NCBI RefSeq assembly: GCF_051903065.1
Contig: NZ_CP178438.1
From: Escherichia coli
Lineage (GTDB): Bacteria > Pseudomonadota > Gammaproteobacteria > Enterobacterales > Enterobacteriaceae
Strand: one strand, 5' to 3'
Length of the DNA: 64,000 bases
The notes below the pieces were generated by a model. The model ran no database searches. It had not been told where the DNA came from and saw only the letters and a list, made by a program, of their open reading frames with translations. Below, piece after piece: positions 49,256 through 49,349 of this stretch (positions are counted from its first letter, which is position 1; every line of letters begins with the position of its first letter). The position numbers and the translations under genes are program-made.

Positions 49256-49271
49256 GGTAAAACGTTTTACC
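49256..49271. promoter_or_regulatory. perfect 16-bp palindrome GGTAAAACGTTTTACC (candidate MalI operator, malI-proximal)
   Basis: Located in the divergent malI/malX intergenic region. Confidence 0.6.
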
Positions 49272-49333
49272 TTTTATTTATCTTATACCCGCTATTATCG
49301 TTGCGTAATGTGATTTATGCCTCACTAAAATTT

Positions 49334-49349
49334 GATAAAACGTTTTATC
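49334..49349. promoter_or_regulatory. perfect 16-bp palindrome GATAAAACGTTTTATC (candidate MalI operator, malX-proximal)
   Basis: Second copy of the AAAACGTTTT-core palindrome, about 50 bp upstream of the malX ATG. Confidence 0.6.

Follow-up and report, generated by a model that had tools for sequence, protein, structure and literature searches.

Which protein acts at the divergent promoters of malI and malX, and through which sites, is the question raised by two palindromes in the spacer between these genes, which lies in a 64,000-bp stretch of Escherichia coli DNA, referred to here as the window. The first-pass annotation, made from the sequence without database searches, had described two perfect 16-bp palindromes 78 bp apart, had placed them in the divergent malI/malX promoter region, the first near the malI start and the second just upstream of malX, and had proposed that MalI, a repressor of the LacI family, uses both of them to control its own gene and malXY. 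We followed this proposal with palindrome statistics, profile matches, cross-species and within-species comparisons, and the published literature.

Two perfect palindromes between malI and malX

Reading of the sequence confirmed that GGTAAAACGTTTTACC on the malI side and GATAAAACGTTTTATC on the malX side are exact reverse-complement palindromes of 16 bp, and their sequences, coordinates, symmetry and spacing were all as first described. The distance of 78 bp separates their centres, at 49263.5 and 49341.5; 14 of their 16 bases are identical, and the repeat finder reported the two as both a direct and an inverted repeat at the same 78-bp spacing. No other perfect palindrome of 16 bp occurs in the 64,000 bp of the window. 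The degenerate pattern GRTAAAACGTTTTAYC has exactly two exact matches in the window, namely the two palindromes, and with up to three mismatches allowed it recovers in addition the positions 3695 and 33102, each with three mismatches and a broken core. Two 16-bp palindromes less than 100 bp apart arose in none of 100 first-order Markov simulations of the window, and four or more matches to GRTAAAACGTTTTAYC with up to three mismatches arose in none of 100 dinucleotide shuffles. On the basis of these simulations and shuffles a chance origin of the pair was rejected.

At 14 bp the window holds four perfect palindromes. One of them, ATTGGTTAACCAAT at 47203-47216, lies in the spacer between hdhA (47318-48085, minus strand) and uidR (46499-47089, minus strand). 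It is 114 bp away from the start of uidR, on the upstream side, and is a candidate operator, possibly for the TetR-family regulator UidR. A further perfect 14-bp palindrome, CGATTTTAAAATCG, is found at 39392-39405.

The assignment of the flanking genes held up in profile matches (Table 1). In MalI the helix-turn-helix (PF00356) covers residues 8-53 and is followed by a periplasmic-binding-protein-like sugar domain (PF00532, residues 65-341), so that the gene beside the sites encodes a regulator with an N-terminal HTH_LacI domain; the product name of malY is also given in RefSeq. According to the RegPrecise survey of the family, LacI-family operators are even palindromes of 16-22 bp with a central CG, typically positioned 30-140 bp upstream of a start codon (PMC4052901). 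Both sites in the malI-malX spacer are even 16-bp palindromes with a central CG, and their centres are found 38.5 bp upstream of the malI ATG and 58.5 bp upstream of the malX ATG. Compared with LacI-family operators in general, as described in that survey, the anatomy of the malI-malX region is thus within the norm, that of an autoregulated local regulator.

Table 1. Features of the malI-malX control region and of the adjoining genes. Coordinates refer to the window; putative elements are named as such.
Feature	Position	Strand	Evidence or remark
malI-side MalI operator GGTAAAACGTTTTACC	49256..49271	.	exact match to GRTAAAACGTTTTAYC; conserved in 12 Enterobacteriaceae; target described in PMC5543585
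malX-side MalI operator GATAAAACGTTTTATC	49334..49349	.	identical to the 'MalI DNA site' of oligonucleotides D71689 and D71690 (PMC5543585)
CRP site, core TGTGATTTATGCCTCA	49309..49324	.	centre 49316.5; 22-bp frame 49306-49327; common to both divergent promoters
Putative malX -10 hexamer TATCTT	49346..49351	+	overlaps the 3' end of the malX operator; class II CRP geometry
Putative malI -10 region, TAAGAT (49285-49280) or TATAAG (49287-49282)	49280..49287	-	conserved TTTATAC block
malI, LacI/GalR-family repressor, 342 aa	48197..49225	-	NF007449, 670 bits
malX, PTS maltose/glucose EIICB, first gene of the operon	49400..50992	+	PRK10110, 1118 bits; RefSeq annotation at the homologous place
malX ribosome-binding site GAGGAG	49387-49392
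malY, PatB-type C-S lyase, MalT antagonist, second gene of the operon	51002..52174	+	TIGR04350, 379 bits

The proposal that MalI controls its own gene and malXY through both palindromes agrees with published experiments. MalI was described as having one 16-bp target at the malI promoter and one at the malX promoter, in a study that cites Lloyd et al. 2008 and 2010 and whose supplementary oligonucleotides spell out the site listed in Table 1; in the same work an array of 20 copies of GATAAAACGTTTTATC recruited MalI::mCherry in vivo, giving foci that were absent from array-free cells (PMC5543585). The sites have also been used in the laboratory as chromosome tags, known as MalO/MalI-mCherry (PMC5543585). 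Furthermore, a 12-bp deletion within malI and a full malI deletion raised malX expression 7.4-fold and malY expression 6.2-fold (PMC12089948), and MalI is also described elsewhere as the repressor of malXY (PMC10878103). Conservation of the sites together with malI and malX across genera and the signature in the recognition helix of MalI, both presented below, lend further support to the proposal. We put the probability that the two palindromes are the MalI operators of the divergent malI-malXY control region of E. coli at about 95%; the operator pair and the repressor role of MalI are already known and published.

Conservation across species

A search of one genome per species for exact matches to the operator pattern yielded at least 120 loci; the E. 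coli representative was not among the matches listed. In at least 21 genomes of other species an orthologue of malX (64-99% identity) has the exact motif immediately upstream, and in 20 of these at least 21 genomes a divergent MalI orthologue (40-93% identity) lies within the fetched DNA, so that the site is conserved in other species along with the regulator and the target genes. Among the matches listed, the genomes carrying the motif belong to Escherichia albertii, four Citrobacter, Pseudescherichia, Lelliottia, two Enterobacter, Siccibacter and one metagenome-assembled genome, and further to Erwinia, Mixta, Morganella, Vibrio rumoiensis, Photobacterium, Enterovibrio and four Aeromonas. The distance between the two sites is 79 bp in 11 Enterobacteriaceae and in Morganella (among the matches listed); it rises to 92 bp in Photobacterium and V. 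rumoiensis and to 100 bp in Enterovibrio. In Mixta a diverged partner site is found at 79 bp, and in Aeromonas and Erwinia a single site is present when up to three mismatches are allowed. Judging from the single-site Aeromonas and Erwinia, autoregulation of malI may not be universal.

When E. coli is aligned with these 11 Enterobacteriaceae (12 genomes), the main conserved blocks are the two operators, with an almost invariant central TAAAACGTTTTA, and on the malX side the central 14 bp of the operator are invariant in all 12. The other conserved blocks are a CRP site of the form TGTGA...CNCA, the sequence TTTATAC, which is the reverse complement of the putative malI -10 region, a TCTTC extension past the malX operator that forms part of the putative malX -10 element, and the malX ribosome-binding site; the remaining malI-malX spacer is free to vary. 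This pattern is a textbook phylogenetic footprint.

The 78-bp spacing of E. coli compares with 79 bp in E. albertii, Citrobacter, Enterobacter, Lelliottia, Siccibacter and Morganella. The base that E. coli lacks would adjoin the malI -10 block on its side towards the malI operator (window 49272-49282), where TTAT-CTTATAC stands against TTATATTTATAC.

Promoter geometry and a proposed mode of repression

Lloyd et al. are said to have mapped the MalI sites genetically in 2008 and 2010, by mutagenesis in the later study. The malX operator was reportedly assigned to -24 to -9 and the malI operator to +3 to +18 (Lloyd, Godfrey and Busby 2010, FEMS Microbiol Lett 305:28), the malI and malX transcript starts are said to lie 85 bp apart (Lloyd et al. 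2008, 288:250; 2010), and one CRP site is reported by the same group at -41.5 for malX and at -43.5 for malI. Placed on the window, these reported positions would have the malX transcript start near 49358 and the malI transcript near 49273, 85 bp apart, and the CRP offsets counted from either start give the same centre, 49316.5, which is the centre of TGTGATTTATGCCTCA. We relied on the reported operator and start positions because all four figures fit the window sequence exactly.

Within the intergenic region TGTGATTTATGCCTCA is the only match to the CRP consensus with up to two mismatches, and as a consensus match alone it is not above what chance would give in the window. In the 12 aligned genomes its TGTGA is invariant and its 3' half is partly conserved, and support for the CRP site comes from this conservation and from the literature: malI and malX were among the CRP targets in genomic SELEX, and CRP binds the malI/malX spacer (PMC3105977). 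The same report assigns 'different CRP molecules' to the two promoters, as against the one CRP-like candidate with up to two mismatches in the intergenic region here. Another TGTGA, at 49249-49253, is immediately adjacent to the malI operator (ATGTGACAGGTAAAAC); a TCACA half is absent at a spacing of 6 or 8 bp, and the pentamer is only partly conserved, reading GTGAC in E. albertii and Citrobacter. It might be related to the 'different CRP molecules' of PMC3105977.

To place the putative malX -10 hexamer we used the class II position of the CRP site (centre at -41.5) and a conserved block, TTTTATCTTC, running past the palindrome; for the putative malI -10 region we used the TTTATAC block (reverse complement GTATAAA) conserved in the 12-genome alignment. 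Given starts at 49358 and 49273, the hexamers would be TATCTT (49346-49351) for malX and TAAGAT (49285-49280) for malI. Consensus scanning of positions 49100-49500 found no sigma-70 promoter, an outcome expected for weak, activator-dependent promoters, and no terminator-like site. Taken from the CRP centre, the class II spacing and the -10-like blocks, the operators would overlap the core promoter on one side and the early transcribed region on the other.

In the mechanism that we propose, one MalI dimer would occupy each 16-bp site with its central CG, making contact through its N-terminal helix-turn-helix of the LacI type. On the malX side, the operator would overlap the spacer and the -10 element of the CRP-dependent malX promoter, and MalI bound there would exclude RNA polymerase and keep malXY off. 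The malI-side operator would lie just downstream of the malI start, with its centre near +10.5, and MalI at this position would block initiation or promoter escape, resulting in negative autoregulation. A single CRP site would activate both promoters. The nearly fixed spacing of 78-79 bp would then reflect that each operator is tied to its own promoter and both promoters are tied to the common CRP site, rather than looping.

Two independent operators or a repression loop

A pair of nearly identical sites that flank both promoters and the CRP site could also be bridged by MalI as a cooperative pair, so that a loop traps the CRP site and the two promoters in the manner of LacI O1-O3, GalR OE-OI or NagC at nagE-nagB, and the constant 79 bp in 11 Enterobacteriaceae and Morganella, which the diverged partner site of Mixta likewise keeps, would suit such an arrangement. 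The constant spacing is, however, better accounted for by the common CRP site, which fixes both promoters. Bridging calls for a tetramerisation domain or a partner protein, but MalI (342 aa) aligns to LacI residues 2-325 of 360 and ends there, with no counterpart of the C-terminal tetramerisation helix of LacI, although bridging might take another route. Looping further calls for an integral number of helical turns between the sites, but 78 bp correspond to 7.43 turns and 79 bp to 7.52, which places the operators on opposite faces of the DNA, and the Vibrionaceae spacings of 92 bp (8.76 turns) and 100 bp (9.52 turns) do not keep the helical phase. Aeromonas and Erwinia, with their single site at up to three mismatches, also speak against a loop. 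Moreover, in the 2010 study of Lloyd et al. each operator reportedly repressed its own promoter and the other operator was not needed. We therefore give the loop a slim chance; most likely, the two operators act independently, with one MalI dimer on each.

The lac system is one of the closest known parallels. MalI belongs to the same family as the lac repressor (E = 3e-22 between MalI and LacI), which likewise acts on a palindromic operator, and the centre of lac O1 at +11 of lacZYA compares with the position near +10.5 proposed for the malI-side operator, the same roadblock position. The two systems differ in that LacI has the tetramerisation helix and MalI does not, in that no in-phase auxiliary operator is present at malI-malX, and in the operator itself, the natural lac O1 being odd and imperfect and the MalI site an even palindrome centred on CG. 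Divergent promoters on either side of a CRP site are also found in nagE-nagBACD and other CRP-dependent sugar regulons with two repressor sites, and each promoter there is overlapped by one of these sites, as would be the case at malI-malX. NagC, which belongs to the ROK family, acts by looping the DNA between sites that are in phase; the malI-malX spacing, in contrast, is out of phase and its sites are reported to be independent.

Variation of the operators within E. coli

The 301 bp around the sites occur once each in 5413 of 5426 complete E. coli genomes, where the flanking genes are annotated malI and malX, and identical 301-bp matches include E. coli strain C and BLR(DE3). The window is accordingly E. 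coli chromosome, from a lineage other than K-12. The known operators of E. coli K-12 are those of the same locus and genes, with the same malX-side site GATAAAACGTTTTATC and one site per promoter. On the malI side, K-12 and three other sampled E. coli genomes carry A at 49257, so that their operator reads GATAAAACGTTTTACC and has one asymmetric pair; the G at 49257 in the window renders GGTAAAACGTTTTACC perfectly symmetric, and the two sequences differ by this one-base polymorphism. The exact 60-mer of the window around the malI-side site was found in 214 of 5339 complete E. coli genomes (about 4%), and the perfectly symmetric malI-side operator is a minority allele in the species. Since operator positions 2 and 15 are R and Y in all genera among the matches listed, the change at 49257 is probably neutral.

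A precise deletion of 78 bp, running from operator to operator (window 49256-49349), was observed in the enterotoxigenic E. coli isolate L6_E562 (NZ_LR883000.1, L124 2501-2596). It leaves one hybrid operator, GATAAAACGTTTTATC, in a malI-malX spacer of 96 bp and removes the CRP site and what would be the core of both promoters, and it looks like an event in which the operators served as direct repeats for recombination or slippage. A shortened malI-malX spacer was found in at most 16 of 5412 E. coli genomes.

Recognition helix and the choice of MalI over its paralogues

The operator co-occurs with a distinct recognition helix. Among the matches listed, all 19 of 19 MalI orthologues carry GVSV[S/T]TVS[L/M]VL, and the position equivalent to LacI Arg22 is L or M in 26 of the 26 LacI-type helix-turn-helix domains with a site upstream. 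In the 11 listed regulators with a site at the 3' end of the gene, the same position is L (7), F (3) or Q (1), and the three LacI-type regulators that stand elsewhere in the listed loci have R, Q and Y there.

The identical 16-mer is also found beside LacI-family genes of Firmicutes, Actinobacteria and Bacteroidota whose products are only 21-31% identical to MalI, among the matches listed in Blautia, Clostridium, Collinsella-like Coriobacteriia, Bifidobacterium, Cohnella, Pedobacter and others. The site is positioned either upstream of these distant regulators or about 1.0-1.5 kb beyond the helix-turn-helix, that is, just past the 3' end of the gene. An upstream site was observed in loci L010, L015, L030, L086, L106 and L113, and a site at the 3' end in L002, L006, L024, L043, L054, L057, L078, L096, L100 and L112; the distant regulators all carry a recognition helix of the TVS[L/F]VL type. 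Two sites each are present in L015, at a distance of 76 bp, and in L065, at a distance of 53 bp; no MalI-like gene was detected in L065. The occurrence beside such distant regulators suggests that the operator type is common to several orthologous groups, and the 16-mer and the helix signature fit a shared recognition code.

The same occurrence bears on whether the palindromes are instead bound by a different member of the LacI family (PurR or RbsR, for example) or by several paralogues, with MalI adjacent only by coincidence. The AACGTT core is common to the LacI family, and the central AAACGTTT resembles the consensus boxes of PurR and RbsR. Yet the sites co-occur with malI orthologues in at least 20 genomes at MalI identities down to 40%, and the regulators beside the 16-mer have a distinctive TVS[L/M/F]VL helix. 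This helix is absent from PurR and RbsR, which have His at the position equivalent to Arg22, and from LacI, which has Arg. Regulators with R or Y at this position do not adjoin the site among the matches listed, the site recruits MalI::mCherry in vivo, and malXY is derepressed when malI is mutated. Binding by a paralogue in place of MalI is accordingly highly improbable.

A role of the palindromes in RNA, whereby hairpins in the leader of malI or of malX would influence stability, translation or termination, has a negligible probability, for although the malI-side site would be transcribed and could fold into a hairpin of 7 bp (-6.2 kcal/mol; z -2.6 within a 36-nt context), the malX-side hairpin is weak (-2.7 kcal/mol, z -0.4) and would lie upstream of the malX start, the full predicted malI leader is not unusually stable (z -1.05), no terminator-like site was found between 49100 and 49500, and it is the sequence itself that is conserved across genera, including the ACGT that would form the loop, not the pairing through compensatory changes.

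Reach of the MalI regulon

With the palindromes taken as MalI operators, it may be asked whether MalI controls genes other than malI and malXY, which we consider doubtful. Deletion of malI brought E. coli a fitness gain on galactose, on GlcNAc and on glucose with asparagine that was unexplained through malXY, and the authors suggested further targets (PMC10878103). In V. rumoiensis a third exact operator, GGTAAAACGTTTTATC, was observed directly downstream of malY (L083, 2702-2717), 37 bp upstream of an open reading frame for a 320-aa transporter of the EamA family (PF00892, 133 bits); this gene is a possible extra MalI target in that species.

Loss-of-function alleles of malI were repeatedly selected in the mouse gut and in strains deficient in glucose transporters (PMC10878103, PMC12089948), and this recurrent selection makes malI a gene of current interest. 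The sites themselves are not a discovery; the analysis shows that a real operator pair can be recognised from sequence alone. The cross-genus operator model GRTAAAACGTTTTAYC with its invariant TAAAACGTTTTA may be used to find further MalI targets or the inducer of MalI.
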